A DNA stretch of 59,561 bases. It comes from Terriglobia bacterium. Lineage in GTDB: Bacteria > Acidobacteriota > Terriglobia > UBA7540. The stretch lies in the NCBI GenBank assembly GCA_035532595.1, contig DATKQU010000209.1, positions 1 through 59,561 of the forward strand, written 5' to 3'. The position numbers were made by a program, and so were the translations under genes. Below the pieces are notes generated by a model, which was not told where the DNA came from, made no database searches, and worked only from the letters and a program-made list of their open reading frames with translations. Positions 4,265-59,561 of this stretch are shown piece by piece. Position 1 is the first letter of the stretch, and each line of letters opens with the position of its first letter.

Positions 4265-5311
4265 CTAAGAGCTTGCGTGGCGGCGGGCTCGGCGGGAAGA
4301 TTCCGCCGAATGTCCCGCCGCGTGATGGGTTACACAATCAAGAAATGCCAGGGCCAGCAAGGCGCCTCCCGGCTCCGTCAGCGCCGGCAATAGCACGGAT
4401 ATCGCCGCGCTCCCGGAGAACTGCTGATCGTTGCTGTCCGTTATGGCGAAGAGTTTTCCGCCGTTTTTTTCCCCGGTGTCTGCTCCTACCTGGTGAACGA
4501 CCGCTTTGAGCGCGCAACGCGAGCCGGAAAGAATCACGACTCCGGTATCCTTTTCGATCAAGGGAAGCTCGGCATCGCGAAAATGCAGGAGTTCAAACCC
4601 TGCGGCCGGAAGCCCCGCCAGTTTCTCGAGATGGTGAGCGGCTTGAAGAGCGGCGGGGTGATACAGGCCGCCGCCGGTCACCACAACTTTCGGCAAGCTT
4701 CGGAGTTCGCCGGCAAGCGCCCGGGCAGCGTCGGTAAACTGATTGTGGACGCGCTCGATGTTTTCGGGCAGTTTTTCGAGTTCTGTTTCCTGTGCTTCCA
4801 CGAACGCCGCCGGCCGTTTCAGAACCCGCGCGGCGGCCAAAGCCAGAAAAAGCATTGCCGCATGCTGGCACAACGCCGACTGCATCCCATCGTCTGGGGC
4901 TTCATGAAGGTACAGTGGCGCGATACCGTCGGCCAGCGCGCCGAGCCTGCTGGCGGGGTTGGCCGTTAATCCCCAAACCATGGCGCCCCGGCTCTTCGCC
5001 GCTTGTGCGGCCTCCAACGTCTTCTCGCACTCGCCCGAAGGAGAAATCGCAATCAGCAGGGATCGAGAGGCGAGCACCGAACTGGTATAGGCAGTAAACA
5101 CCTCGGGGCTTCGCACCACAACCGGCAATTGCATGAGGGATTCAAAAGCATAGGCTCCCGTAAGCGCCGCCGAGTATGATGAGCCGCTGCCCGTTATAAA
5201 AACGGGCCTTTCACTCCAAGACGCCCGGCGAACCAGAGCGTCGTATTGGGGCCGTCCTTTCGCCCACATCAGCCGCAGCGCTCGCGGGATTTCAAGAATT
5301 TCCTGCCTCAT
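4265..5311 (-). CDS. Tandem-SIS-domain sugar phosphate isomerase/aminotransferase-like protein (GlmS isomerase-domain/AgaS-like)
   Basis: VFITGSGSSYSAA and LLIAISPSGE SIS motifs. Start chosen at MRQEILEIPRAL with AAGGCGGA upstream. The track start at 5341 is an alternative. Confidence 0.75.
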   Translation of the reverse strand: MRQEILEIPRALRLMWAKGRPQYDALVRRASWSERPVFITGSGSSYSAALTGAYAFESLMQLPVVVRSPEVFTAYTSSVLASRSLLIAISPSGECEKTLEAAQAAKSRGAMVWGLTANPASRLGALADGIAPLYLHEAPDDGMQSALCQHAAMLFLALAAARVLKRPAAFVEAQETELEKLPENIERVHNQFTDAARALAGELRSLPKVVVTGGGLYHPAALQAAHHLEKLAGLPAAGFELLHFRDAELPLIEKDTGVVILSGSRCALKAVVHQVGADTGEKNGGKLFAITDSNDQQFSGSAAISVLLPALTEPGGALLALAFLDCVTHHAAGHSAESSRRARRHASS

Positions 5312-5710
5312 ATTGGATTCCGCCTTAACAGCCGTCCCCATTGCCCGTTCCGGGTCGCGGCCAGGACAAGCGTGAAGGGGCCTTGTCGCCGCGGCCTACA
5401 AAACCGATCCACACCAGCATGGGAGCGTAGCAGATATTTGTACCATGAACCGGAGTCCGGCGGGTAAAACAGTGGCCGGCAGCTCGGAAAACGCCAGGAT
5501 AAGTTTGGCCCTGAAAACTCTCAAGGACATGCGGGGCGTTCCCTTTTCTGATTCGGGGAGTTCCGGCAGGATTGCGCCACCGGCCCTGCCAAAGGCCTGA
5601 AACCAATTCCTGGCGGCTTAATCTAATAGCTGGAGGAGCAGGCTTTGCTTTGCCATCAAGCGGGGAGTTATCCAGACCCCTGCGAGTTTGTTGAAAAGCG
5701 ATTTGGACAT

Positions 5711-5778
5711 GTCATGCGGCGCCCGTTCGCTTCGCTCAGGGCCGTTCGCAAGCTGAGGGCGAACGGGCTCAGGATGAC
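5711..5778. repeat. Half copy of the GTCATSCTGAG palindromic element
   Basis: GTCATGCGGCGCCCGTTCGCTTCGCTCAGGGCCGTTCGC-AAGCT-GAGGGCGAACGGGCTCAGGATGAC. Confidence 0.65.
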
Positions 5779-6119
5779 GGCGCGCAAGGTTTTCTCAGCA
5801 CCATGCTAAATAAAAGGTGACATCTTTGACCACGAAAAGTGATACCTCGGCCTGTTTCAATTATAATAATTGGGAACATGAAATTAGGAGGTTGTGCAAG
5901 GCGGCGGAAAGAGACGGGGGGGGAAGTGGGGCTTGGCGCCAGAGCCTCCGGGCCACGGCTCGCATGCCTGCCTGTAACGGGGAGGATGAGAAGGCTCCTC
6001 GATTCATTCCGCAAATGCTCACGCCCTCAATGCGGCGCCCAGCAGCGGCGGCGAAATTCGGCGGGTTCACTGTAACGCTTCCTCAAATACAATCGTCCTA
6101 AAAAGAATGAGGTCCTAGA

Positions 6120-29100: not shown

Positions 29101-29297
29101 GGCCTCCCTAGTTTAATCCGAAACGGCTGTGGGAAGCACTCTCCCATCATGGCGGCGCGGAACGGTGCTTCCGGGCTTGCTTTACCGAACTGCCAGGTGC
29201 GAGCCGGACCGCCAGCATTGGCCGGCCCTGGAAAGCCGCCCAGCTTGAGCCGGCGTGCTTTTTCGTGGTATAAATGAGTCTGACAAGCAGTAGCAAT

Positions 29298-29464
29298 GAC
29301 CTTCGGGGCAGGGTGAGGGAAGAAAGGATTCTTCCCAATTCCCGATCGGCGGTAGAGCCCGCAAGGGGAAGAGGACGAGCAAGACTGCCGGATGGCAGAT
29401 GCCCGAATCCCCACGACCCGGTGAAACTCCGGGGCCGACGGTAAAGTCCGGATGGGAGAAGGTC
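29298..29464 (+). promoter_or_regulatory. FMN riboswitch (RFN element)
   Basis: P1 GACCTTC/GAAGGTC. Conserved GGGGCAGGGTGA...AATTCCCGATCGGCGGTAGAGCCCGC and GGTGAAACTCCGGGGCCGACGGTAAAGTCCGGATGGGAGAAGG. Lies upstream of ribE. Confidence 0.9.
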
Positions 29465-29726
29465 AGGGTCCCACGACCTCTGCGTTGCGGTCCATTGGCA
29501 GCCGCGGCGGAGTGTGGCCATGGGTATTGAGCGGTATCCCACCTTGCCCCGCGCGGGGAATTTCCCCCGATGATACTGAGATCCTGAACCCATTCCGATC
29601 CGTCGGGCTGATCTGCGGACCTTGAGCACGTCGCGGGCGGACCCCTCTCGAGCGCGCTTCAAAACACCGGGCGCGGCGAGGTGAGACCCGAATGCCAGCC
29701 GAAATTTCAGAGCAAGCGAGTGATTT

Positions 29727-38698: not shown

Positions 38699-38787
38699 GG
38701 TAGTGGGTCGATTTGGCCGGGTAGCGGCAAGTTTACCTCGCCATGTGGCGGCATAAAGCCGCCTCTACGTCAAAATGACCCACTACC
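38699..38787. mobile_element. 89-nt MITE with GGTAGTGGGTC terminal inverted repeats and a perfect 8-bp TSD (GCCCGCTG)
   Basis: GCCCGCTG at 38691..38698 and at 38788..38795 flank the element. The second copy (4 mismatches) is at 52182..52270. Confidence 0.75.
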
Positions 38788-41404: not shown

Positions 41405-41761
41405 TCTTTGGCGGCGATCTCCCCCGAACAGCGCAAAGCGAAAAGCAGATTCCTCGCGGAGTTTACCCTGAGCCCCTTCGCTTCACTCAGGGCCGTTCGC
41501 TAGCGGAGGGCGAACGGGCTCGGAATGACTGTTTGAGGAGGCCGGTCGCCGACGGCACGTCGCCGCTACAATAGGCGTGCCGAAGGGACTTTCTTGCCGG
41601 GCGTAAAATGGAAGATGGTAGCCACGGACAGTGCCTTTCTGTCCGTGGGCCTTTCAATACGGCACCAACCCACTAAAGCTGTAGCGGCGATCTATGATCG
41701 CCGGCCGTTTGGAAAAATCAAAAACCGGCGGCCATAGGCCGCCGCTACAATAGGCGCGGGC
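41405..41761. repeat. REP cluster with three families
   Basis: GTCATSCTGAG-family copy 41445..41529. GTAGCGGCG half unit 41541..41570. GATGGTAGCCACGG hairpin 41614..41652. GTAGCGGCG palindromic doublet 41679..41749. Confidence 0.8.
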
Positions 41762-43093
41762 TCATTGCTTGATGATGGCGCCATCGTACCGCCGGATTTC
41801 TCCCCAGCCGCCGTTCAGGTGATCGGGGCCGCCGCGGAAAGGGTGCTTCGAGGCGAGCTGCTCATCCACTTCAATGCCCCACCCCGGCGCATCGCTGGCA
41901 TACAAATAACCGTCTTTATAAGTTGCGCAGCCCTTGAAAATCTCGGCCTCGAGCCCTTGGATGATGCCGCCCTCCTGGATGCCGAAGTTGGTGCTGGCAA
42001 GATCCAGATGCAATTGCGCCGTGTGGCCGACAGGCGAGACGTCCGGGGGGCCGTGCCACGCGGTCTTAACGCCATACTGCTCCGCGAGGATGGCGATCTT
42101 GCGCGCTGGCGTCAGGCCTCCGGCTTGCGACAAGTGAACGCGGATGTAATCGATCAGGCGCTCCTCAATCAGCGGCTGCCACTCGTGCGGGCTATTAAAG
42201 AGTTCTCCCATGGCCAAGGAGGTTGCGCACTGCTGCCGAATCTGCCGGAAGTAGTCGATGTCTTCGGGCGAGAGCGCGTCTTCCAGATAGAACAACCGAT
42301 AAGGCTCGAGTTCTTTGGCAAATTGCACGGCCTGGCGCGGGCTCACGCGCTCGTGCACGTCATGGATCAGCCCGATCTCTTCGCCGAGTTGTTTGCGGCA
42401 CTCTTCCAGCATTTGGCGCGTGCGGCGCATGTAAGGGCCCGGCTCGAACACGGGCCCCGAGTGCAACCCTTTCAATGGCGGGCCGCTACTCGGGCCGTAT
42501 CCGGACATGCCGGGCACCCCCACCATGACTTTGACACATTTGAATCCCTTCTCCATGGAGGCGCGGACGCGCTCGACGGCCTGGGAGGCCTCGACGGCGC
42601 CTACGGTGTCATAAGTGAGGGCAGCTTCCCGCGCCTTGCCGCCCAGCAACTGGTACACCGGCATGTTAGCCTGGCGGCCCTTGATGTCCCAAAGCGCCTG
42701 GTCCACGCCGCTGATGGCGTTGTTGAGCACCGGGCCGTTGCGCCAGTAGGAACTGTTGTAGCAGGCCTGCCAGGTGTCCTCGATGCGGTCCGCCGGCTTG
42801 CCGAGCAGGAGCGGCTTGAGATATTTTTCCACCGCGGGCACCACCAGATCGGCGCGCTGGGTAAAGGTGGCGCAACCGTAACCGTAAAGGCCATCCTGAT
42901 CGGTAAGAACCTTCACCACCACCAGGCGCACGGCGCCGGGCTGGGTGGCGATTACCTGGATGTCTTTGATGATGGGAGACGGCAAGCCACTGATCGCGCG
43001 CGCCTCTTGCTCCCTGGCCGCGAGCGGCTCCGCCGACAAGGCCGCGCCGGCAACTCCCGCCACGGCAAGGTGAAAACATTCTCTTCTGTCCAT
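41762..43093 (-). CDS. Enolase-superfamily dehydratase, D-mannonate dehydratase (ManD)/RspA-like, with an N-terminal Tat-like signal
   Basis: ADRIEDTWQACYNSSYWRNGPVLNNAISGVDQALWDIKGRQANMPVYQLLGG matches the ManD-type N-terminal domain. N-terminus is MDRRECFHLAVAGVAGAAL. Confidence 0.85.
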   Translation of the reverse strand: MDRRECFHLAVAGVAGAALSAEPLAAREQEARAISGLPSPIIKDIQVIATQPGAVRLVVVKVLTDQDGLYGYGCATFTQRADLVVPAVEKYLKPLLLGKPADRIEDTWQACYNSSYWRNGPVLNNAISGVDQALWDIKGRQANMPVYQLLGGKAREAALTYDTVGAVEASQAVERVRASMEKGFKCVKVMVGVPGMSGYGPSSGPPLKGLHSGPVFEPGPYMRRTRQMLEECRKQLGEEIGLIHDVHERVSPRQAVQFAKELEPYRLFYLEDALSPEDIDYFRQIRQQCATSLAMGELFNSPHEWQPLIEERLIDYIRVHLSQAGGLTPARKIAILAEQYGVKTAWHGPPDVSPVGHTAQLHLDLASTNFGIQEGGIIQGLEAEIFKGCATYKDGYLYASDAPGWGIEVDEQLASKHPFRGGPDHLNGGWGEIRRYDGAIIKQ

Positions 43094-43467
43094 TGGAGGC
43101 TCCTTTGATGTTGGTCTGTGCCTGCTCCCTCGAGGCCAAGAGCAGGCCGCGCAGAAGGGGAAACGTTCAGTGCATTCCTCTTTTCATGAACCTCTGCATG
43201 GCCCCCTATTAAAGACCAGAAATCCTGAAACCGCAATCGTTCGCAATGTTACTCGCCGCACGGGTTGAGAACAACCGTAACCTGCTTAACGATTGAAGTT
43301 TCCTGGGAAGTACCCGGCGGGTCAATTGAATCCCAAACCAGAAAACGTAACACCTTCGGGTTCAGCAGATACTCTTCGGCGCCACATTACTGGTCCGCGG
43401 AGCGGATATTCTTCCCGTGCAACCGCAGACATGTGATGTTGAATATTGATTTAATATCCATCACTTG

Positions 43468-49291: not shown

Positions 49292-49645
49292 CTAGAGCAG
49301 TCCCTTTTCCTGCTTTTCCTGGCATTCAATGCAATGGCGGGCCCAGGGCACAGCCTCCAAACGCTTGACTTGGACGTATTCCTGGCATTCAACGCAAAGA
49401 CCGTACGAACCATTCTCCATGCGCCCAAGGGCCTCCTCGATCAGGTGCAGGATCCGGTGGTTGTCATGACTTTGATGGAAAAGAAACTCCTTGGTATAGG
49501 AGTTCGCCGCTTTGTCAGCGGGGTCCTGAGTAGCTTCCCCATCCGCCTCGCGACCGTCTTGTTCGGATTTTGCGACCGTGCGTCGAAGCTCTTCCTGCTT
49601 TTCCAATAAGCGCTTCCTGTAGGTCTGAATCTTTCTCTTATCCAT
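49292..49645 (-). CDS. DksA/TraR-family C4 zinc-finger protein
   Basis: Coiled-coil N-terminus and CVECQEYV...HCIECQ C4 finger. Confidence 0.85.
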
Positions 49646-49901
49646 GGCCCTCTTGCACTAAAAGTCTGTTAAGTTTTTAAACGTTTGATTCTATCGTTCA
49701 CGCCGTCCATGTGTCAATCCAAACCTCAGCAAGGTGGTGTCCAATTTGCCTGAGCCGGTCGCGTAAATAACTTGCTTTTGGAGACAAAATATAACCCACA
49801 ACACACTGAAAGTGTATCATGGGCTACCCGGCCTTATGCGGGTGCCGTTGTACGTTCAACAGACAACGAGGAGCAAAGAACACCAGCTAAACCAGTACAA
49901 C

Positions 49902-50780
49902 ATGACTATTGGTATTAGTTTACTTTGCGAGTCTGGCAACACACTTCTATTGGGAGCAGATGCACGTGCGTCGTATGCTGGTACGCAACCGCTCCCCCGC
50001 CCGCATGATGATATGTGCAAGATATTTACTCTTCCTTTGGGGTTTCAAGCCGTTATCGCCGGATACTTTGATGCCTGCGAAGCCGTGATAGCCTCTCTTA
50101 CAGAAGCATTTAGGCGCGTTAAACAAGAATTACAAGGAAAAGAAGTGGGGCTAGATCATCTTCGTTTTGCTGTTACAGAAGCAGAAGCGCACGAATGGCA
50201 GATTATTCTTGATAGGGAATTTCAAAAACATCTTGGTATACGGCATCGGGATTGGACAACAGGCCCGCTAGATACGCGCCTAGTTCGAGCGGGTAAGCGG
50301 ATAGTACAGCAAACAAATTTTCCCGTACACCTCATCATTACCGGTTTTACCAGCTATGAGCCAATCATTTTCACTGTATCGGGACTCGATACTATCAGTT
50401 TCCCGCAAAAATTTGCTGTTATTGGCAGCGGTTTTACATTGGCAACAAACGCCTTAAATCAACGCCAGCAGTATGAGCACATGACCTTTCAAAGAAGTGT
50501 CTTTCACTTGATCGAGGCACTAGAAGCGGCAAGGCAAGAACCGCAAGGAACGGTTGGACCGCCAAGGGACATTGTTGTAATCGAGAGAGGGGCCTATAGG
50601 TCGCTACCTGTCCAAGACCCCGTCGTGCGCCAATTGCTATCACAGTATCAAGGCAAAGACAGCAAAGACCTCGATAACGATAATGCCATTCGGCAAAAGC
50701 TACAAAGTATTTTGTACGCCAATCCGCTTGATGAAAGCAATCGGGGGCCGTCGCCGGGCGGGGTTATACCTTCTTCTTAG
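49902..50780 (+). CDS. Proteasome-beta/HslV-like Ntn-hydrolase-fold protein (orphan)
   Basis: MTIGISLLCESGNTLLLGADARAS resembles the T1...G-x-x-L-x-x-D-x-R proteasome-beta N-terminus. A Lys-Ile pair (CKIF) follows downstream, and AVIGSGFTLA appears later. Upstream track starts (49812, 49836) are possible as a propeptide. Confidence 0.55.
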   Translation: MTIGISLLCESGNTLLLGADARASYAGTQPLPRPHDDMCKIFTLPLGFQAVIAGYFDACEAVIASLTEAFRRVKQELQGKEVGLDHLRFAVTEAEAHEWQIILDREFQKHLGIRHRDWTTGPLDTRLVRAGKRIVQQTNFPVHLIITGFTSYEPIIFTVSGLDTISFPQKFAVIGSGFTLATNALNQRQQYEHMTFQRSVFHLIEALEAARQEPQGTVGPPRDIVVIERGAYRSLPVQDPVVRQLLSQYQGKDSKDLDNDNAIRQKLQSILYANPLDESNRGPSPGGVIPSS

Positions 50781-50925
50781 CCCATCGCGCTAACACCGCT
50801 TTCCGCGCTGACTGACTGCGTTGCTCTGGCGTCATAGCTGCGGCCCTGGCAGGACCGCCCTTCTTACCACCCTTGCTTCCGAGCTTGGCAAGGTAAGCTC
50901 GAAGTTCTGGAGGCATCTTGTTCAT
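50764..50925 (-). CDS. Candidate 53-aa lysine/arginine-rich small protein (below the ORF-track cutoff)
   Basis: Reads MNKMPPELRAYLAKLGSKGGKKGGPARAAAMTPEQRSQSARKAVLARWAKKKV. Convergent with, and overlapping by 17 nt, the 3' end of the Ntn-hydrolase-like gene. Confidence 0.35.
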   Translation of the reverse strand: MNKMPPELRAYLAKLGSKGGKKGGPARAAAMTPEQRSQSARKAVLARWAKKKV

Positions 50926-50966
50926 GGCCCAAACCTACCTGAGCCGCTCACGAAAGTCAAGGAAAA

Positions 50967-51128
50967 CTAGAGTGGGTGCTTCTTGAGATACAAAAACATG
51001 CCGTATGCGAGCATTACGGCGAGCATAAAGCCGTACTTACCTTTTTCTGAAGCCAGCCACAAAATGAACGTTGCGCTCGCCAATAAGCCCACAAGTGCAA
51101 ATAGCGATTTTGAAGAGTTGTCCGCCAT
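50967..51128 (-). CDS. Candidate 53-aa two-helix small membrane protein (below the ORF-track cutoff)
   Basis: Reads MADNSSKSLFALVGLLASATFILWLASEKGKYGFMLAVMLAYGMFLYLKKHPL. Two hydrophobic stretches. Weak RBS. Confidence 0.35.
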   Translation of the reverse strand: MADNSSKSLFALVGLLASATFILWLASEKGKYGFMLAVMLAYGMFLYLKKHPL

Positions 51129-51310
51129 AGGTTTTTAGGGTTTCCGGTGTGCCTGTGCCAAGGCGTCGCTTCGGCGCGGTGTGTATGGCATTTCCCCGCC
51201 TACTGGCAACGGCGATAGCCCGAGCAACAGGCACGCCGGAAATATAGCACAACCCTACGCTTAACTAGTGTCAAAACTGCCTGCAATGCAGTGCAGGCCT
51301 AAAAGTTTAT

Positions 51311-51651
51311 GGGGTGAGTAGGTCTGAGGGCTGGTGTCAATCCAGACACCAGCCCCTTAACGCCGGGCTGGTTTCTGTTAACGAGTTGCCAGTCCGACGG
51401 CAACGATTGCCAGAAGGTCAAAACCGCCTTACGACGACTCCGTTTCGGACGCAGCGCAGAATCCCTGCTTTGCGTCAGGATGCATAGTCTCTATAGGCAA
51501 AGTACACCTATGGCAAGATGGCTGTTGCCGTACCGTTGCGCGGCTGATCCTGCCGCCATCCGCACTTCTGGCCCCAGGTGCATCAAAAGTGTTTTCAATG
51601 CACACCTCCTCCCGGAGTGCCGGGTCGCCAGAATTGTAACTCACCCCACCA
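51311..51651 (+). ncRNA. Candidate structured RNA of unknown class
   Basis: A 9-bp long-range helix GGGGTGAGT (51311..51319)/ACTCACCCC (51639..51647), followed by ACCA, encloses at least 6 local hairpins (for example the 11-bp GGGCTGGTGTC/GACACCAGCCC at 51328..51355). No convincing ORF. Confidence 0.3.
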
Positions 51652-51757
51652 GTTCTGATACCGATTAAGTCACCGGCAGTGATGTCCGATCTGCCATGAG
51701 TAGCTTACGCAAATAGTTAACCTGTAGGGCAACCAAATCCAAAAAGAGAGGTATGCA

Positions 51758-52102
51758 ATGACCAAAACGCAGTGCTATAGTTCTTGGCCGGAGGGTCTAT
51801 ACCGCATGAGCCAAGAAGATCAAGACAAGCAGTTTATCAGCGACCTACAAAAATATACCGAGTTGCAAGCTAGCTTGGCGTCTGTCCAAGCAACGCTCAC
51901 CGACATCGGAAGAAATCTGAAAGGAACAGGTGAGAGCGTGGAACGCGACCCTTATAACTGCTCAACCGAGTGGGGTATATTTAAGAGCCAAACAAGCCAA
52001 ATTGAGGGGCTCGTAAAGCAGTTCAAAGAGGAATCGAACGAAAGCCAAAGGCTTGCAGAGTCATTAAGAAAAAGACGGTTTACCTTCCCGCCCAATAAGT
52101 AA
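51758..52102 (+). CDS. Hypothetical coiled-coil protein (114 aa)
   Basis: AGAGAGG RBS. Heptad-like LQKYTELQASLASVQATLTDIG and IEGLVKQFKEESNESQRLAESL. No family recognised. Confidence 0.5.
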   Translation: MTKTQCYSSWPEGLYRMSQEDQDKQFISDLQKYTELQASLASVQATLTDIGRNLKGTGESVERDPYNCSTEWGIFKSQTSQIEGLVKQFKEESNESQRLAESLRKRRFTFPPNK

Positions 52103-52181
52103 CCAACTCACGCAATTCCACCACCAAAGCCTGTGCAAGTACGTGACCGGCTCAGGCAAATTAGGACACCACCCTCAGCAA

Positions 52182-52270
52182 GGTAGTGGGTCAATTTGGC
52201 TGGGTAGCGGCGAGTTTACCTCGCCATGTGGCGGCATAAAGCCGCCTCTAGGTCAAAATGACCCACTACC
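52182..52270. mobile_element. 89-nt MITE (second copy) directly abutting the cassette TSD
   Basis: Same element as 38699..38787. Flanked by CTCAGCAA (52174..52181) and CTCAGCGA (52271..52278). Confidence 0.75.
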
Positions 52271-52457
52271 CTCAGCGACTTAGCCTACACGCGCTGGATC
52301 GACCGCGCTTGCAAAGCAATCCTCCAGGCTTAAGCGGCCAGGAAGAGCGTTTTCACAACGAAGAGGAACGCCAAGCCTGCCGTCCCGGCTGCGCTGTCGG
52401 AGTAAATTCGAAGTAAAGAGCGAATCGGCCTTCGCAGACCGAATGCAGGGAAAAACA

Positions 52458-53023
52458 GGTAAGCGCGAGCAAGCCTGTAAGCCGAATTTTGTACCCCGGA
52501 GGTCCGGGGTGGCGATCATTCATCTAGCCCCGTCATTGCTGGCGGGGTCAAGCGACCTACCCGAGAGTTGCCAGCCCGTAGCGGCGGCCCGTGACCGCCG
52601 TGCGCGGCCCGCGGGAACCCCGGCGATCACCGATCGCCGCTACAGACCTTGCGGAGCGGGTCACTCCTCCTCTCCTATTTGGTCTTGCTCCGTGTGGGGT
52701 TTGCCCTGCCCCCCATATCGCTATGGAGGCGGTGCGCTCTTACATTAAGCCGCCTGCGCGGCCGCACCTTTTCACCCTTACCGCGTCCCCATTCTGGAAT
52801 TCCAGAGGAGACGCCGGCGGTATCTTTTCTGTGGCACTTTCCGTACCGGAGGCGTACGCTCGCTTGCGCGAAATCCCCCTCCGGCCCTCGCTGTTAGCGA
52901 GCACACTACCCTGTGGAGTTCGGACTTTCCTCTCCTCCGCTCCCGCTTGCCTGCCCCGTGCCCGTGAAGGCCGGAAACAGGCGCCTGAGCGGAGCAGCGA
53001 TCACCCGGCTTACTCGCGCTGCC
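52458..53023 (-). ncRNA. rnpB: RNase P RNA, bacterial type A, unusually long
   Basis: The minus strand reads GGAGGAGAGGAAAGTCCGAACTCCACAGGG, GGTAAGGGTGAAAAGGTGCGG...TAAGAGCGCACC, CACGGAGCAAGACCAAATAGG and GGGTAGGTCGCTTGA...CTAGATGAATGATCGCCAC...ACAAAATTCGGCTTACAGG. P1 is GCGCGAGTAAGCC/GGCTTGCTCGCGC. Ends are good to about 5 nt either way. Confidence 0.9.
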
Positions 53024-55204: not shown

Positions 55205-57604
55205 ATGCATGATCAGCCTGAAGCTTTTTCCCGTGTCCTGATAGATCAAGCCCTCCGAGAGAGTGATTGGGACCTCCTCGACCCGCACCGGGTTCGTTTT
55301 GAGCTTAATGGTCATAGCGGGCGGGCGGATTATGTCTTGAGCGGGTCGCGCGGGCCGCTCTGCGTTTTGGAAGCCAAGCGCGAAGATAAGGACCCCTACG
55401 AAGCCAAAGAGCAAGCGCGCGGCTATGCGGAAAACCTTCGTGCGCCCTTCATTATTCTTTCCAACGGGCGAGAACATTGGTTCTGGAACTACGAGCGAGC
55501 AGACCAGCGTGATGCCTACCGCATCGAGCGCTTACCGTCCCCCCAAGACCTCGACCGTCTCCGCCTCAAGAATCTCCAGCCGCCCCGTCCCTTAATGACG
55601 GAGGTCATTGGGCCAGATTACCTTAACGCGTACAAGCCGGACGTGACATTGCGGCGTTACCAGATCGCCGCCATGGATGAAGTTTCAAGGCAGTTTGACG
55701 ACCAGGGAAAACGAAGGTTTCTGCTGGAAATGGCCACCGGGACCGGTAAAACGCTCTTGTGCGCGGCGCTGATTCGCCGTTTCCTTGCCACGCGAAACGC
55801 CGAGCGCGTGCTTTTCATCGTGGACCGTATCGAACTGGCAAAGCAAACGATGGAGGACTTTAACGTCGTGCTGCGGGAATTCAGCCCCGTAGTGTTCAAG
55901 ACCGCACGCCGCCACCCGTCGGAATTGCTGGGCTCCTGCGTGGTGGTGGCAACGCTCCAATCCCTCATGGTGGACCGTCGCTTTCGCCAGGAGTTCACGC
56001 CATTCCACTTTGATCTGGTCATTGCCGATGAAGCGCACCGTTCCATATATGGCAACGCTCGCGAGGTCGTACATTTCTTTCAGGCGACTCGCATTGGCCT
56101 GACTGCCACGCCCAAGGCATATCTCAAGAATATTGATTTGGCCCGGCTCGGGCGGGAAAACCCTAAAGCCCTTGAAGCCCGCGAGCTTCGCGACACCTAC
56201 CACTACTTTGGCTGCGAGGCCGGTTTCCCCACATTTCGCTATGACATCATTGAGGCCGTCCAGGACCCCGAAGGGCCGTTCCTCTGCATGCCGAAGATTT
56301 ACGACATCCGTTCGGACATCACCACTCAGGCACTGGACGAAAACGGCTGGGCCGTGGTGGTTAACGAACAGGAGGAAAACTTCAAGATTCAGGACCTGGA
56401 GCGCAAAATCTTCACCCCGGAGCGGAACCGGGTGATGTGCGAAGCGTTTCTCAAACATGCCCAAAAGGACCCTTCCGGCCAGATCGGCAAGTCCGCCATT
56501 TTTGCGGTCAATCAAGACCACGCGACGAACCTTACTAAAATCCTTAACCTCATCCAGCCGGGCTTGGCCGTCACCATCACTTCGCGTATTCCCGAAGCGG
56601 CTTCCATCTCGAAAGATTTCCGCGACGGCAAGCGCTCCGAGCGCGTGGCGGTGTCCGTCGATATGCTCTCCACGGGGTACAACTGCCGCGACCTGTTGAA
56701 TGTGGTCCTCATGCGGCCGATTTTTTCTCCCACCGAATACATCCAGATCAAGGGCCGGGGCACGCGCCTTTTCACTTTTCGCTTTGGCAACACCGAATAC
56801 GAAAAGAAAGTATTCTTCCTGCTTGATTTCTGCGGGGTGGCCGAGTACTTCGAGGACACGTACGATTACAGCGAACCCCTGCCCATCCCCGTCCTGAGGG
56901 GAAAGCCATCCGTGCAGCTTGAGGTGGCACGGGCTTCCAGCCCGTGGACGGATGACACGGGCATTCTGCCTACGGCCAGGCACGGTCAAGATGACCATGC
57001 CACAGGCATCCCCGTGTGGGAAGGCAAGGACGTCATCATTTCCGAAGAAATCCGTATCGTGGGACCCAACGGTGAAAAGGTGGATGTGATGACCTTCCGG
57101 GGTTCTTTCGAGCGGGACATCAAAGAATTTGACCGTAAGGATGAGGAATTTCACGAAGCGGTCGAGACTGAAGGCGATGACGCCGTTGAAGAAATCCTTG
57201 GCGAACGTTTCTTTCACAAACCCGAGATGTTTTATTCCCCGGACAAACTGGTGTTATCCTATGGCGTTCCGGCTCCTACGCCTACTTTTGTTTACGGCGC
57301 TCTGGGCAAGAAGCCCTTGCCGAGCAAAGACGAGGTGGTTGCCGATGCCGTGGATTCCATCGCCGCGCGGTTCAATCTCCACTACAGCGAACAGAAGTGG
57401 TTGAACGCCACGGCACAGCTTCTCGCGCATGACCCGGCGGCTCTCAAACGCTTTGCGCAGGGTGACATGACGATTTTCGCGTCCAGCCAGTTCAATCAAT
57501 TGGGGGGCCTCGAAGCGCTGAACGAATTCACTGACCGCGACGAGGTTTTTGAGGCGCTTCGGCAATCCACCATGGTCCGCCAGTCGCTTCTGGCCGCTCA
57601 GTAA
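55205..57604 (+). CDS. hsdR: Type I restriction enzyme R subunit (EcoEI-type C-terminal domain)
   Basis: PD-(D/E)xK region ADYVL...VLEAKRE. Helicase motifs MATGTGKT, IADEAHRS, IGLTATP, QIKGRGTR. C-terminal FNQLGG tail. Contains an in-frame REP copy. Confidence 0.9.
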   Translation: MHDQPEAFSRVLIDQALRESDWDLLDPHRVRFELNGHSGRADYVLSGSRGPLCVLEAKREDKDPYEAKEQARGYAENLRAPFIILSNGREHWFWNYERADQRDAYRIERLPSPQDLDRLRLKNLQPPRPLMTEVIGPDYLNAYKPDVTLRRYQIAAMDEVSRQFDDQGKRRFLLEMATGTGKTLLCAALIRRFLATRNAERVLFIVDRIELAKQTMEDFNVVLREFSPVVFKTARRHPSELLGSCVVVATLQSLMVDRRFRQEFTPFHFDLVIADEAHRSIYGNAREVVHFFQATRIGLTATPKAYLKNIDLARLGRENPKALEARELRDTYHYFGCEAGFPTFRYDIIEAVQDPEGPFLCMPKIYDIRSDITTQALDENGWAVVVNEQEENFKIQDLERKIFTPERNRVMCEAFLKHAQKDPSGQIGKSAIFAVNQDHATNLTKILNLIQPGLAVTITSRIPEAASISKDFRDGKRSERVAVSVDMLSTGYNCRDLLNVVLMRPIFSPTEYIQIKGRGTRLFTFRFGNTEYEKKVFFLLDFCGVAEYFEDTYDYSEPLPIPVLRGKPSVQLEVARASSPWTDDTGILPTARHGQDDHATGIPVWEGKDVIISEEIRIVGPNGEKVDVMTFRGSFERDIKEFDRKDEEFHEAVETEGDDAVEEILGERFFHKPEMFYSPDKLVLSYGVPAPTPTFVYGALGKKPLPSKDEVVADAVDSIAARFNLHYSEQKWLNATAQLLAHDPAALKRFAQGDMTIFASSQFNQLGGLEALNEFTDRDEVFEALRQSTMVRQSLLAAQ
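56924..57003 (+). repeat. GTGGCACGGGC-type REP copy inside hsdR
   Basis: GTGGCACGGGCTTCCAGCCCGTG...CACGGTCAAGATGACCATGCCAC, translated as ...VARASSPW...ARHGQDDHAT. Confidence 0.75.
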
Positions 57605-57606
57605 AG

Positions 57607-57658
57607 GTGGCACGGGCATCTTGCCCGTGAAGCCTCATGGCCCGGAGGGCCATGCCAC
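57607..57658 (+). repeat. GTGGCACGGGC-type REP copy in the hsdR-hsdM spacer
   Basis: GTGGCACGGGCATCTTGCCCGTGAAGCCTCATGGCCCGGAGGGCCATGCCAC. Two nested hairpins inside an outer GTGGCA/TGCCAC stem. Confidence 0.8.
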
Positions 57659-57681
57659 AGGGCAATTAGCTGATTCTTCTT

Positions 57682-59124
57682 ATGGGAAATAACACGCAAC
57701 AACACAACGGGAGTAATTTTCATTCCTCCGGCCTGCGCCAAAAGATTGACCTGCTCATGGACATCCTTTGGGCGGGCGGCGTGAATAACCCCATGGATTC
57801 CATCGAGCAGATTTCCTACTTGCTCTTTCTGCGCCTGCTCACGGAAAGGGATGACATTCTCGCCTCGCTCCAGAAGAAGGGCTACCAGCGCATCTTTTCG
57901 GGATCGTGGGCGCGCTACGCCTGGGGGAATTTTGTCACCCTCACCGGCGATCAGCTTTTTGACGCCGTCCGGTCTGCGATTGAAAGCATCCACGAACTGC
58001 CGGGGCTTTCGGGAACCGGAAAACTTCTTTTCAATCGCGCCACGCTCAAGATTTATGACCGCCCCACGCTTCGGGCCGTTGTCCAGGCCATCCATGAGAT
58101 GGATCTTGCCTCACACAATGGACATGACATCAAGGGCGATATGTACGAGTACCTGCTCAGCAAACTCCAATTGTCCGGCACCAACGGCCAATTCCGGACC
58201 CCGCGCCACATTATCGCCATGATCGTGGCACTCGTTGATCCCAAGCCGGGAATGCGCATCTGCGACCCTGCCTGTGGCACAGCAGGCTTCCTCATCGCAG
58301 CATACAACCATATCTTGCGGCAGAACACATCCAAGGCGGCGCTCGCCAAAGGCGATTCAGACGGCGATTTATTGAAGCCTGCACAATGGAGATTCCTGGA
58401 GGAACACGCCTTCACCGGCTATGACAATGACGCCAACATGGTAAAGATTGCGATTTTGAATCTTTATCTGCACAAGCTGGAAAGGGCCAACATTGAGCTT
58501 CACAATCCCCTGACCACAAGCAAGGGTAACCCCTATCCCGGCTTCACCTTTGACACGATTCTCGCCAATCCGCCGTTTGCGGGACAGATTCAAAAGGAAA
58601 GTATCCTTGCGGACATCAACCTTGAGACGCGAGACACAGAACTGCTCTTCCTCAAGTGGTTCCTCGACCACCTGAATCCCGTCGGACGCGCCGGTGTGAT
58701 CGTTCCGAACGGCGTGTTTAAGCCCTATTCCGGCGTCGGCACTGCGGCGCTGATTCTTGAAAAATGTGGCACGGGCGTCCCTCCCGTTAAAGACCATGGT
58801 CAGGATGACCATGCCACGGAGTTTGTCTGGTTCTATGACCTCACGGCGGATGGATTTTCCCTCGATGATAAGCGCGCTCCAATTGAGGCCAATGATATTC
58901 CCGATGTTCTAGCTAAATGGCCCAAGCGCGAAGAAGGTCCGAACAGTTACCGTGTGCCAATTGAGAAGATTCGCGAGCACGATTGGAGTCTCGCGTCAGG
59001 CAGATACAAGCCGGTGGTGGTGGAGACGGTTAAGCACGATGCACCGGCAAAAATTGTCGGCGCCATCTTGAGTCTCGAGAAGCAGATCACCGAAGAAATC
59101 CAGAAGCTGATGGAGAAGCTGTAA
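57682..59124 (+). CDS. hsdM: Type I R-M N6-adenine DNA methyltransferase subunit, probably defective
   Basis: HsdM N-terminal domain, motif I DPACGTAGFL, motif IV NPPF. Carries an in-frame REP insertion and appears to lack about 30 aa between PNGV and FKPYSGV. Confidence 0.8.
   Translation: MGNNTQQHNGSNFHSSGLRQKIDLLMDILWAGGVNNPMDSIEQISYLLFLRLLTERDDILASLQKKGYQRIFSGSWARYAWGNFVTLTGDQLFDAVRSAIESIHELPGLSGTGKLLFNRATLKIYDRPTLRAVVQAIHEMDLASHNGHDIKGDMYEYLLSKLQLSGTNGQFRTPRHIIAMIVALVDPKPGMRICDPACGTAGFLIAAYNHILRQNTSKAALAKGDSDGDLLKPAQWRFLEEHAFTGYDNDANMVKIAILNLYLHKLERANIELHNPLTTSKGNPYPGFTFDTILANPPFAGQIQKESILADINLETRDTELLFLKWFLDHLNPVGRAGVIVPNGVFKPYSGVGTAALILEKCGTGVPPVKDHGQDDHATEFVWFYDLTADGFSLDDKRAPIEANDIPDVLAKWPKREEGPNSYRVPIEKIREHDWSLASGRYKPVVVETVKHDAPAKIVGAILSLEKQITEEIQKLMEKL
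58766..58817 (+). repeat. GTGGCACGGGC-type REP copy inside hsdM
   Basis: GTGGCACGGGCGTCCCTCCCGTTAAAGACCATGGTCAGGATGACCATGCCAC, translated as CGTGVPPVKDHGQDDHAT. Confidence 0.8.
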
Positions 59125-59127
59125 GGT

Positions 59128-59213
59128 GTGGCACAAACGTGGCACGGGCGTCCCGCCCGTGAAGAACCATGGCCAGGAGGGCCATGCCACTGCGCATGAC
59201 CAGGATGGTCATG
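59128..59213 (+). repeat. REP array (partial unit, full unit and an extra hairpin) between hsdM and the RAYT gene
   Basis: GTGGCAC-AAAC-GTGGCACGGGCGTCCCGCCCGTGAAGAACCATGGCCAGGAGGGCCATGCCAC-TGCG-CATGACCAGGATGGTCATG. Confidence 0.8.
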
Positions 59214-59220
59214 CAACATT

Positions 59221-59561
59221 AAAGGTTCGCCATGGCGCTTACTTGCCCCATTGGACGCGTGATGGTGCTATCTATGCCGTCAATTTCCGTCTGGCTGATT
59301 CGCTGCCCAAGCCGGTGCTCGAATCCTGGAAATTTGAGAGGAAGGATATTATCAAGACTGCGCGGCAAATGAAGCGACCGCTGAGCGCCTCTGAAGAAGA
59401 ACGGCTCGATAAACTCTTTTCCGAAAAAGTTGAAAAATACTTGGACGAAGGCCGGGGAGCATGCTGGATGCGAAGAGATGAAGTGGCAGCGCGGGTGGCG
59501 GGCGCTCTCGAACACTTCGATGGCAAGCGTTACCGCCTTGCCGCCTGGTGCATCATGCCGA
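59221..59561 (+). CDS. REP-associated tyrosine transposase (RAYT/IS200-like Y1) family, partial; 5' start unresolved, 3' end cut by the window
   Basis: Open frame reads KVRHGAYLPHWTRDGAIYAVNFRLADSLPKPVLESW...LDEGRGACWMRRDEVAARVAGALEHFDGKRYRLAAWCIMP. This matches the LPHW...YFVTFRLADSLP...G.G.C.L...FDG.RY.L.A.VVMP pattern. It is not in the ORF track because there is no stop within the window. Confidence 0.7.

Follow-up and report, generated by a model that had tools for sequence, protein, structure and literature searches.

An insertion in the intergenic DNA between a dksA-like gene and the RNase P RNA gene (rnpB) of a Terriglobia bacterium (Acidobacteriota) was analysed in contig DATKQU010000209.1 of assembly GCA_035532595.1. 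The whole stretch of 59,561 nt is referred to as the window. The insertion is a 2,441-bp element at positions 49733-52173, designated here as the cassette, and an 8-bp duplication, CTCAGCAA, lies flush outside both of its ends. The cassette has IS1-type ends, the genes of a proteasome-like protease and a small basic protein, and no detectable transposase gene. It is very probably a mobile insertion cassette (MIC), that is, a non-autonomous derivative of the IS1 family of insertion sequences (IS).

Organisation of the locus and its empty site

The features of the cassette and of the adjoining MITE (a miniature transposable element with inverted repeats) are listed below; TIR stands for terminal inverted repeat and ORF for open reading frame.

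49725..49732, no strand: left copy of the target-site duplication, CTCAGCAA, by direct reading; a single copy in the empty-site strains L031 and L035
49733..49765, plus strand: left TIR, 33 nt, tip GGTGGTG (IS1 type); starts with the 28-mer GGTGGTGTCCAATTTGCCTGAGCCGGTC (49733-49760)
49902..50780, plus strand: gene of a 292-aa proteasome-beta-like N-terminal nucleophile (Ntn) hydrolase, start MTIGI...
50764..50925, minus strand: gene of a small basic protein of 53 aa (...GSKGGKKGGPARAAAMTPEQRSQSARKAVLARWAKKK), convergent with the protease gene, 17-nt overlap
50967..51128, minus strand: hypothetical ORF of 53 aa that has two hydrophobic segments; taken solely from the ORF list, with weak sub-threshold Pfam matches
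51129..51757, no strand: noncoding gap, 629 nt; core at about 51133-51680 (about 550 nt) strongly structured
51758..52102, plus strand: gene of a 114-aa protein; homologue in L021 71% identical, frame kept
52140..52173, minus strand: right TIR, 34 nt, minus-strand tip GGTGGTGTCCTAATTTGCCTG; the right end was first read as 52145-52173
52174..52181, no strand: right copy of the duplication, CTCAGCAA; doubles as the left target duplication of the adjoining MITE
52182..52270, plus strand: 89-bp MITE with IS1-type ends GGTAGTGGGTC... / GGTAGTGGGTCAATTTGGCTG..., of the same IS1 subgroup, directly after the right CTCAGCAA; present in filled and empty strains
38699..38787, plus strand: second MITE copy, 95.5% identical, with a perfect 8-bp duplication, GCCCGCTG, at both sides

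Rereading of the sequence confirmed the positions that a preliminary description of this DNA had given for both CTCAGCAA copies and both ends, as well as its statement that the right end is the reverse complement of the left apart from one extra T. The inverted repeats described there as 28/29 bp are real, and their true length is greater, at 33/34 nt (49733-49765 paired with 52140-52173), with one extra T in the right end and one G/A mismatch. According to the preliminary description, its reading would fail if the 28-mer GGTGGTGTCCAATTTGCCTGAGCCGGTC were just an abundant repetitive extragenic palindromic (REP) sequence. The 28-mer occurred once in the window at up to three mismatches, with 0.00 occurrences expected from shuffles, and is therefore not an abundant REP. 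The windowed G+C content was 0.45-0.54 within the element and 0.55-0.65 outside, in agreement with the AT-richer interior noticed at first reading.

Look-up of contigs encoding the identical DksA-like protein yielded seven. In two of these, L031 (JGI 3300031672) and L035 (SRR8554501), the dksA-rnpB locus contained the MITE and a single CTCAGCAA, without the cassette; the flanks were 99.8% identical to the window in L031 and 99.1-99.2% identical in L035. The empty site reads ...tccaaac CTCAGCAA GGTGGTGGGTC...[MITE]...CCCACTACC CTCAGCGA cttagcc..., where CTCAGCGA lies directly 3' of the MITE (52271-52278 in the window). The distance between the flanking genes was 2,449 nt shorter in L031, which equals 2,441 + 8. 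Filled alleles were found in the window, L001/L030, L002, L032, and L033. Of the left end, contig L034 covers just 10 nt, which agree with the cassette and not with the MITE allele. The cassette was 100% identical across contigs from at least five samples. The relatives thus showed the empty site that the preliminary description had proposed to look for, a clean one with one CTCAGCAA, instead of the same genes at the locus without TIRs or a duplication. Insertion of the cassette into the dksA-like/rnpB intergenic DNA, with an 8-bp duplication, is recent. The insertion is precise, and precise excision was judged less likely. Between the window and the otherwise near-identical L001, 165 of the 177 differences fell within 1.3 kb (41759-43100), inside a gene of the mandelate racemase/muconate lactonizing enzyme family; this cluster is probably a recombination tract.

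The MITE at 52182-52270, which the preliminary description overlooked, is one of two copies in the window. It is older than the cassette, and the target of the cassette was the 8 bp already serving as the left duplication of the MITE. Landing on the 8 bp that directly abut one end of a MITE already resident there, and belonging to the same subgroup, suggests end-directed target choice. At the dksA-rnpB locus, the MITE differed at 4 of 89 nt between filled and empty strains, despite flanks that were 99.8% identical, and this allele difference may reflect gene conversion among copies. A second cassette-MITE abutment was found in L021 (1-1242; ENA ERZ27256799, k141_608560), which aligned with window 51010-52260. 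It was 100% identical over window 51010-51840 (830 nt) and about 70% identical beyond 51840, through the 114-aa gene and the right TIR. A further MITE copy, oppositely oriented, adjoins the L021 cassette variant at a distance of 7 nt. L021 is either a recombinant second cassette copy or an assembly chimera.

The neighbours of the cassette were those first described: a zinc-finger gene of the DksA/TraR type (49292-49645, minus strand; Pfam E 5.8e-13) and rnpB (52462-53016, minus strand, 236 bits). The match to RNase P RNA covers 555 nt for a 367-position model, so insertions in rnpB amount to about 190 nt. The noncoding gap (51383-51396) and rnpB (52565-52578) share a 14-nt match that was regarded as chance. 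Upstream of the dksA-like gene, at 49688-49717 on the minus strand, there is a near-consensus promoter-like site (TTGACA-18-TAGAAT, 11 of 12 matches). Its -35 hexamer is 7 nt away from the 8-bp duplication, and the insertion therefore left the promoter-like site intact. A 17-pair hairpin with a T-rich tail is located inside the left end of the cassette (49791-49827, minus strand); as read from the sequence, it could insulate the dksA-like promoter site from inward transcription.

IS1-type ends and the absence of a transposase gene

The ends of the cassette fit the IS1-family form GGnnnTG. The tip GGT[A/G][A/G]TG is common to the cassette, IS1A of E. coli K-12 (GGTAATG/GGTGATG), and nine related elements, and 8-bp duplications were also found at L014, L019, L022, L026, L029, L038, L040, L041, and the MITE. 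The end sequence was searched for elsewhere with the exact pattern GGTGGTGTCC(N)AATTTGCCTG. The 21-nt tip GGTGGTGTCCTAATTTGCCTG was matched exactly in three contigs of Acidobacteriota metagenome-assembled genomes and in 11 metagenome contigs; among the latter, L012 is the window's own locus, and the other contigs differ in flanks and interiors. A mismatch-tolerant scan showed that GGTGGTGTCCTAATTTGCCTG-type tips are paired with a second end of the form GGTAGTGTCCTAATTTGG.... The preliminary description had proposed to look for an autonomous partner with a transposase; the tip indeed delimits elements flanked by 8-bp duplications, and a transposase is encoded in some of them (L014, L019, and L013). 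The elements with delimited ends were as follows.

L014, 149-3698, target duplication CAAAATTG: tip-sharing element encoding an IS1-family transposase
L019, 1294-4333, target duplication AACGGTCA: tip-sharing element with a transposase homologue
L022, 3143-7476; L026, 4652-7397; L029, 3625-7465; L041, 4448-7694: protease elements with GGTAATGGTACAGTTTGAAAT ends and perfect 8-bp target duplications, at different sites

L015 and L017 are shorter tip-sharing siblings with other cargo and without a transposase. The passengers of L014 (149-3698) include a SecB-like chaperone, an MqsA-like antitoxin, and two further ORFs, and look like a toxin-antitoxin-chaperone set from their sequences.

The 268-aa protein of L014 matched Pfam DDE_Tnp_IS1 (PF03400) with 34 bits (cutoff 24.1), and its best NCBIfam match was transpos_IS1, below the cutoff (58.5 against 100). 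The PF03400 scores for L014, L026, and L038 were 32-34 bits against 24.1. L019 and L013 hold proteins 50% identical to the L014 transposase, and the homologous transposases on plasmids are labelled IS1 family by PGAP. The IS1 family includes single-ORF and passenger-carrying subgroups. The partner transposases are single ORFs of 268-296 aa, without the insA/insB' two-frame frameshift organisation, and they are therefore placed with the single-ORF IS1 relatives and not with canonical IS1. Canonical IS1 shares with these elements the GGT[A/G][A/G]TG tips, the 8-bp duplication, and the DDE_Tnp_IS1 type of transposase; it differs from them in its InsA/InsB' frameshift, and from the cassette in that the latter is without any transposase. 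IS1595 was also considered as the family of the cassette and was rejected: the one IS1595 element found with a related protease, that of P0002, has unrelated ends (CAGGATTATTTACTT...) and the target duplication TTACAAAA.

Within the cassette, no interior ORF matched a transposase or recombinase in Pfam or NCBIfam. Using IS1 and IS1595 transposases, tblastn returned nothing in the cassette or the 59.5-kb window. When the cassette, its 629-nt gap included, was searched with five transposases by tblastn and tblastx, no remnant of a transposase came up. The preliminary description had recognised no transposase, integrase, or recombinase among the interior ORFs, and had noted that a cargo ORF of this kind would make the element an ordinary IS or transposon; the searches agree with the former and gave no sign of the latter.

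The proteasome-like protease and the small basic protein

The MTIGI... start of the 292-aa ORF would expose a threonine as the N-terminal nucleophile. The metagenome gene caller chose an upstream ATG at 49836, and look-up of the exact 292-aa protein found no record because gene callers took another start. Among 5.8 billion clusters, the only close relative was P0002 (51% identity). An exhaustive profile search gave 164 protease representatives at E < 1e-3 (about 160 among 1.8 billion clusters). In an alignment of 48 sequences, K40 and G175 were invariant, T2, D20, G54, and G177 were at least 90% conserved, and most homologues began with MT. The conserved set comprises the N-terminal threonine and the equivalents of Asp17, Lys33, and Gly-Ser-Gly.

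Structure prediction by AlphaFold2 with the 48-sequence alignment gave a pLDDT of 92.7 and a pTM of 0.88, compared with a pLDDT of 33 when two sequences were used. The top Foldseek match was the 20S beta subunit of T. acidophilum (E 1.5e-11), and the target-normalised TM-score against 20S beta subunits was 0.75-0.77. The best structural matches were archaeal and eukaryotic 20S beta subunits and Anbu. A profile search of the PDB found an archaeal beta subunit (E 4e-14). With the Pfam Proteasome model, the window protein scored 19.1 bits, below the threshold of 22.4, and 15 of the 48 family members matched at E < 0.01. Family members are about 280-330 aa long; a helical segment of about 45 aa is inserted, and the C terminus is extended. 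The conserved residues, the predicted fold, and the profile matches agree with the first annotation as a proteasome-like Ntn hydrolase, and the protein is predicted to be a proteasome-like threonine hydrolase of a divergent branch.

Prokaryotic proteasome homologues (HslV, Anbu, BPH, and further groups) have been catalogued (Fuchs, Alva and Lupas 2021, PMC8665760). That paper reported phage-borne groups of homologues; the string "transpos" occurs 0 times in it, and no transposon association is given. HslV, Anbu, BPH, and the others share with the window protein the proteasome-beta fold, a threonine after the methionine, and the conserved Asp, Lys, and Gly-Ser-Gly. The window protein differs from the named homologues in its length class (about 280-330 aa), the helical insertion, the C-terminal extension, and a score below the Pfam threshold.

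Relatives of the protease were encoded tail-to-tail with an IS1 or IS1595 transposase in seven of the eight other contexts. P0163, P0155, P0158, P0169, P0091, and P0156 were convergent with an IS1-family transposase gene (282-284 aa), and the partner of P0091, in L037, was a frameshifted 244-aa copy. P0002 was convergent with, and overlapped, the IS1595-family transposase mentioned above. In the six IS1 cases, the overlap of the protease gene with the 3' end of the transposase gene was 4-73 nt, and in five of these it was 66-73 nt. Four of these transposase-protease elements are L022, L026, L029, and L041. P0170, in L028, alone was without a nearby transposase. In that locus (5001-6042 of a 2.3-Mb contig), a degenerate ORF for the basic protein was convergent with and overlapped the 3' end of the protease gene, as in the window.

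An IS1-family clade with the ends GGTA[A/G]TG...CAGTTTGAAAT and perfect 8-bp duplications comprised L022, L026, L029, L041, L038 (1267-3900), and L040 (796-4165). All elements of this clade encoded a small basic protein of the KGG/ARW type together with a protease, and the proteases were of several unrelated types: proteasome-like, ClpP-like, SDH-type, and XRE-HTH with Peptidase_M78. L038 encoded an SDH/ClpP-like serine protease, and L022 had an additional ClpP-like gene. L040 and L039 encoded XRE-HTH plus Peptidase_M78 proteins, with the M78 match of L039 below the Pfam cutoff; at the equivalent position, L044 had a putative XRE-family regulator. In L029, a second candidate Ntn-like passenger of 236 aa (starting MTMQIAIVAKNG...) gave E 0.022 in a profile comparison. 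The plasmid elements were found through the transposase and not through the protease, and tblastn gave no match for the protease in plasmids.

Small proteins of IS1-family elements proved homologous, in their C-terminal part, to the 53-aa basic protein of the cassette, with E 2.6e-16 for L026 and E 2.2e-12 for a plasmid of M. loti; homologues were also found in L022, L029, L038, and L044. Such a protein was present in nine related IS1-family elements, including those on plasmids of cultured Acidiphilium, Mesorhizobium, Methylocapsa, and Hoeflea. The Mesorhizobium homologue is named "histone H1" by PGAP, and the cassette protein matched PHROG 2384, a family of unknown function and the only one that PHROGs returned. 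In the autonomous relatives, the basic protein was encoded promoter-proximally, upstream of the transposase. The preliminary description had spoken of two tiny convergent ORFs; both 53-aa ORFs lie on the minus strand, one after the other in tandem, and only 50764-50925 is convergent, namely with the protease gene.

The co-occurrence that the preliminary description proposed to look for was thus found inside autonomous IS1-family relatives, and the protease and the basic protein ORF are therefore not random passengers. From the sequences, we read the two as the IS lineage's own accessory module and not as host cargo.

Nature and origin of the cassette

IS1-type ends without a transposase, an 8-bp duplication, precise presence or absence between strains, and autonomous relatives with the same tip were all observed. 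The cassette thus has IS-type TIRs, a target duplication of the cognate length, no internal transposase, and evidence of movement (empty sites and the L021 variant). On the empty site, the transposon-family ends, and the lack of a transposase among the cargo, its first interpretation as an MIC is upheld with high confidence. Since neither the cassette nor the window has a transposase, movement must be in trans. A single-ORF DDE transposase of the IS1 family, encoded elsewhere, would recognise the GGTGGTGTCC(T)AATTTGCCTG tips and link them to target DNA cut at an 8-bp stagger; CTCAGCAA would be duplicated when the stagger is repaired.

MICs, for example MIC231 from IS231 in the Bacillus cereus group, form a class that is defined beside MITEs and transporter IS in ISfinder usage. 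They share with the cassette IS-type repeats and a target duplication around passengers, the lack of a transposase, mobilisation in trans by a cognate IS, and co-resident MITEs of the same IS. The present one differs in that it derives from the IS1 family, not from IS4 or Tn3, and resides in Acidobacteriota; two of its genes, moreover, are no arbitrary passengers but recur in autonomous relatives. No IS1-derived MIC was described in the searched literature.

Several findings weigh against this reading of the cassette. No cognate transposase was found in the same genome, of which the 59.5-kb window and a little flanking DNA were inspected, and the autonomous partners (L014, L019, and L013) are all on other contigs or in other organisms. 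Identity between the window protease and the IS1-linked ones is only 23-28%, and the protease contexts were sampled from few lineages and located via the protease itself. The ends of the cassette are of the L014 class, yet its protease and basic protein genes are of the type found in the GGTAATGGTACAGTTTGAAAT class, and the two transposase classes are just 44% identical. With ends and genes from different classes, its origin involved more than a simple deletion of a transposase gene.

InsA of IS1 occupies a promoter-proximal position, and by analogy the small basic protein may be a regulator that binds DNA or the element ends. Proteins of the element may be the substrates of the protease, which might in this way tune transposition or maintenance. 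A study has reportedly argued that toxin-antitoxin pairs belong to the transposition module of Tn3-family transposons. Those transposons, and IS1 with its InsA, likewise have non-transposase genes at fixed positions beside the transposase, in the case of InsA a small, basic, promoter-proximal protein. The present elements differ from the Tn3-family modules in that they hold proteases of four unrelated types with a KGG/ARW-type basic protein. Perhaps, and this is put forward tentatively, an IS1-family lineage and at least one IS1595 element domesticated proteases for a control or maintenance circuit of their own. The domesticated passenger would be a proteasome-like threonine hydrolase or, alternatively, a ClpP-like, SDH-type, or ImmA/IrrE-type protease, with the basic protein at the transposase-proximal end in IS1-family elements. 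The protease would cleave a regulator or the transposase, for which the ImmA/ImmR pair of ICEBs1 offers an analogue of a protease-gated switch. The cassette would then be a reduced "parasite of the parasite" in which the switch parts are kept, and the orphan structured RNA would be a further regulatory part of an undescribed kind.

The remaining 1.2 kb or so of the cassette holds the ORF that has two hydrophobic segments, the 114-aa gene and, between them, the structured RNA-like region. The noncoding stretch first described as about 340 nt is indeed structured, over an extent of about 550 nt. The gap (51129-51757) gave folding z-scores of -5.4 (plus strand) and -5.8 (minus strand); 150-nt windows across 51133-51680 gave -3 to -4.6, and most windows of the coding part were within about 2 of zero. 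A long hairpin (51140-51245) and a perfect hairpin (51319-51347) were present. The gap matched no Rfam 15 family at the gathering threshold, with only spurious sub-threshold matches at E up to 10, and similar DNA was absent from the other fetched loci, plasmids, and phages. Comparison of the 114-aa ORF with L021 gave a dN/dS of about 0.21 and 19/21/50 differences at the three codon positions, and it is therefore a real gene under purifying selection.

The preliminary description had suggested a defence or addiction module. In such a reading, the ORF with two hydrophobic segments and the structured minus-strand leader of about 600 nt would form a unit like a type I toxin-antitoxin system, the protease would be a second effector, and persistence of the cassette would be due to the cost of losing it or to protection of the host. 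The ORF lies directly downstream of the structured region on the minus strand, with the long hairpin ending about 10 nt before its start codon, so that a type I toxin-like (hok/sok-like) arrangement is conceivable from the sequence, and the sibling L014 has passengers of the toxin-antitoxin type. On the other side, PADLOC gave no match for the four cargo ORFs and lent the idea no direct support. Neither the ORF nor the RNA has support from homology or conservation, although no homologue search was made for the ORF. The protease and the basic protein, moreover, recur with transposases in elements that have neither the ORF nor the RNA. An addiction or defence payload is therefore considered unlikely.

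It is also quite unlikely that the cassette is old at this site and that the empty strains are derived, having lost it by precise excision or by recombination between the CTCAGCAA copies. Precise deletion across an 8-bp direct repeat is possible, and the MITE alleles of the filled and the empty strain have 4 differences in 89 nt where the flanks differ by only 0.2%, so that the filled and empty haplotypes are not trivially related. However, recombination across 8 bp is rare relative to transposition, the cassette is 100% identical in contigs from at least five samples, and its G+C content is below that of its surroundings, as expected of a recent arrival. Whether gained or lost here, the element is a mobile cassette.

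Still less credence is given to an autonomous cassette, in which one of its own products (Ntn hydrolase, 114-aa protein, or structured RNA) would be an unrecognised recombination system. Of the five interior features, three are without an assigned function, and the noncoding region is unusually structured. Its ends and 8-bp duplication, however, are exactly those of elements encoding an ordinary IS1-family DDE transposase. The protease has the full proteasome-beta catalytic set and fold, with no features of a nuclease or recombinase, and in seven of eight contexts its relatives accompany a transposase rather than substitute for one; no Rfam guide-RNA family matched. That the repeats are chance or REP-like and the region ordinary chromosomal DNA is refuted by the empty site, that is, by precise presence or absence between close strains, as well as by the shuffle expectation of 0.00 and by the other duplication-flanked elements ending in the same tip.

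Elsewhere in the window, a type I restriction-modification locus (hsdR, hsdM, and hsdS) was found at about 55205-59561 (13448-19365 in L001), with a gene between hsdM and hsdS that gave a weak Y1_Tnp (PF01797) match. An ordinary FMN riboswitch was present at 29295-29467 (94.6 bits).

The MIC reading of the cassette extends a known kind of element to the IS1 family, here with a rare proteasome homologue, and adds to it an empty site, a family assignment, and a recurrent pairing of an IS transposase with a protease and a small basic protein. The locus is a clean natural case of a gene-carrying non-autonomous IS derivative that segregates as filled and empty alleles in a soil population of Acidobacteria. 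Insertion exactly at the target duplication of a MITE hints at end-directed targeting within this IS1 subgroup. A poorly known branch of proteasome homologues is repeatedly found tail-to-tail with IS transposase genes. If these proteases do act on the element's own proteins, this would be a new layer of transposition control, and orphan proteasome homologues would gain a functional handle.

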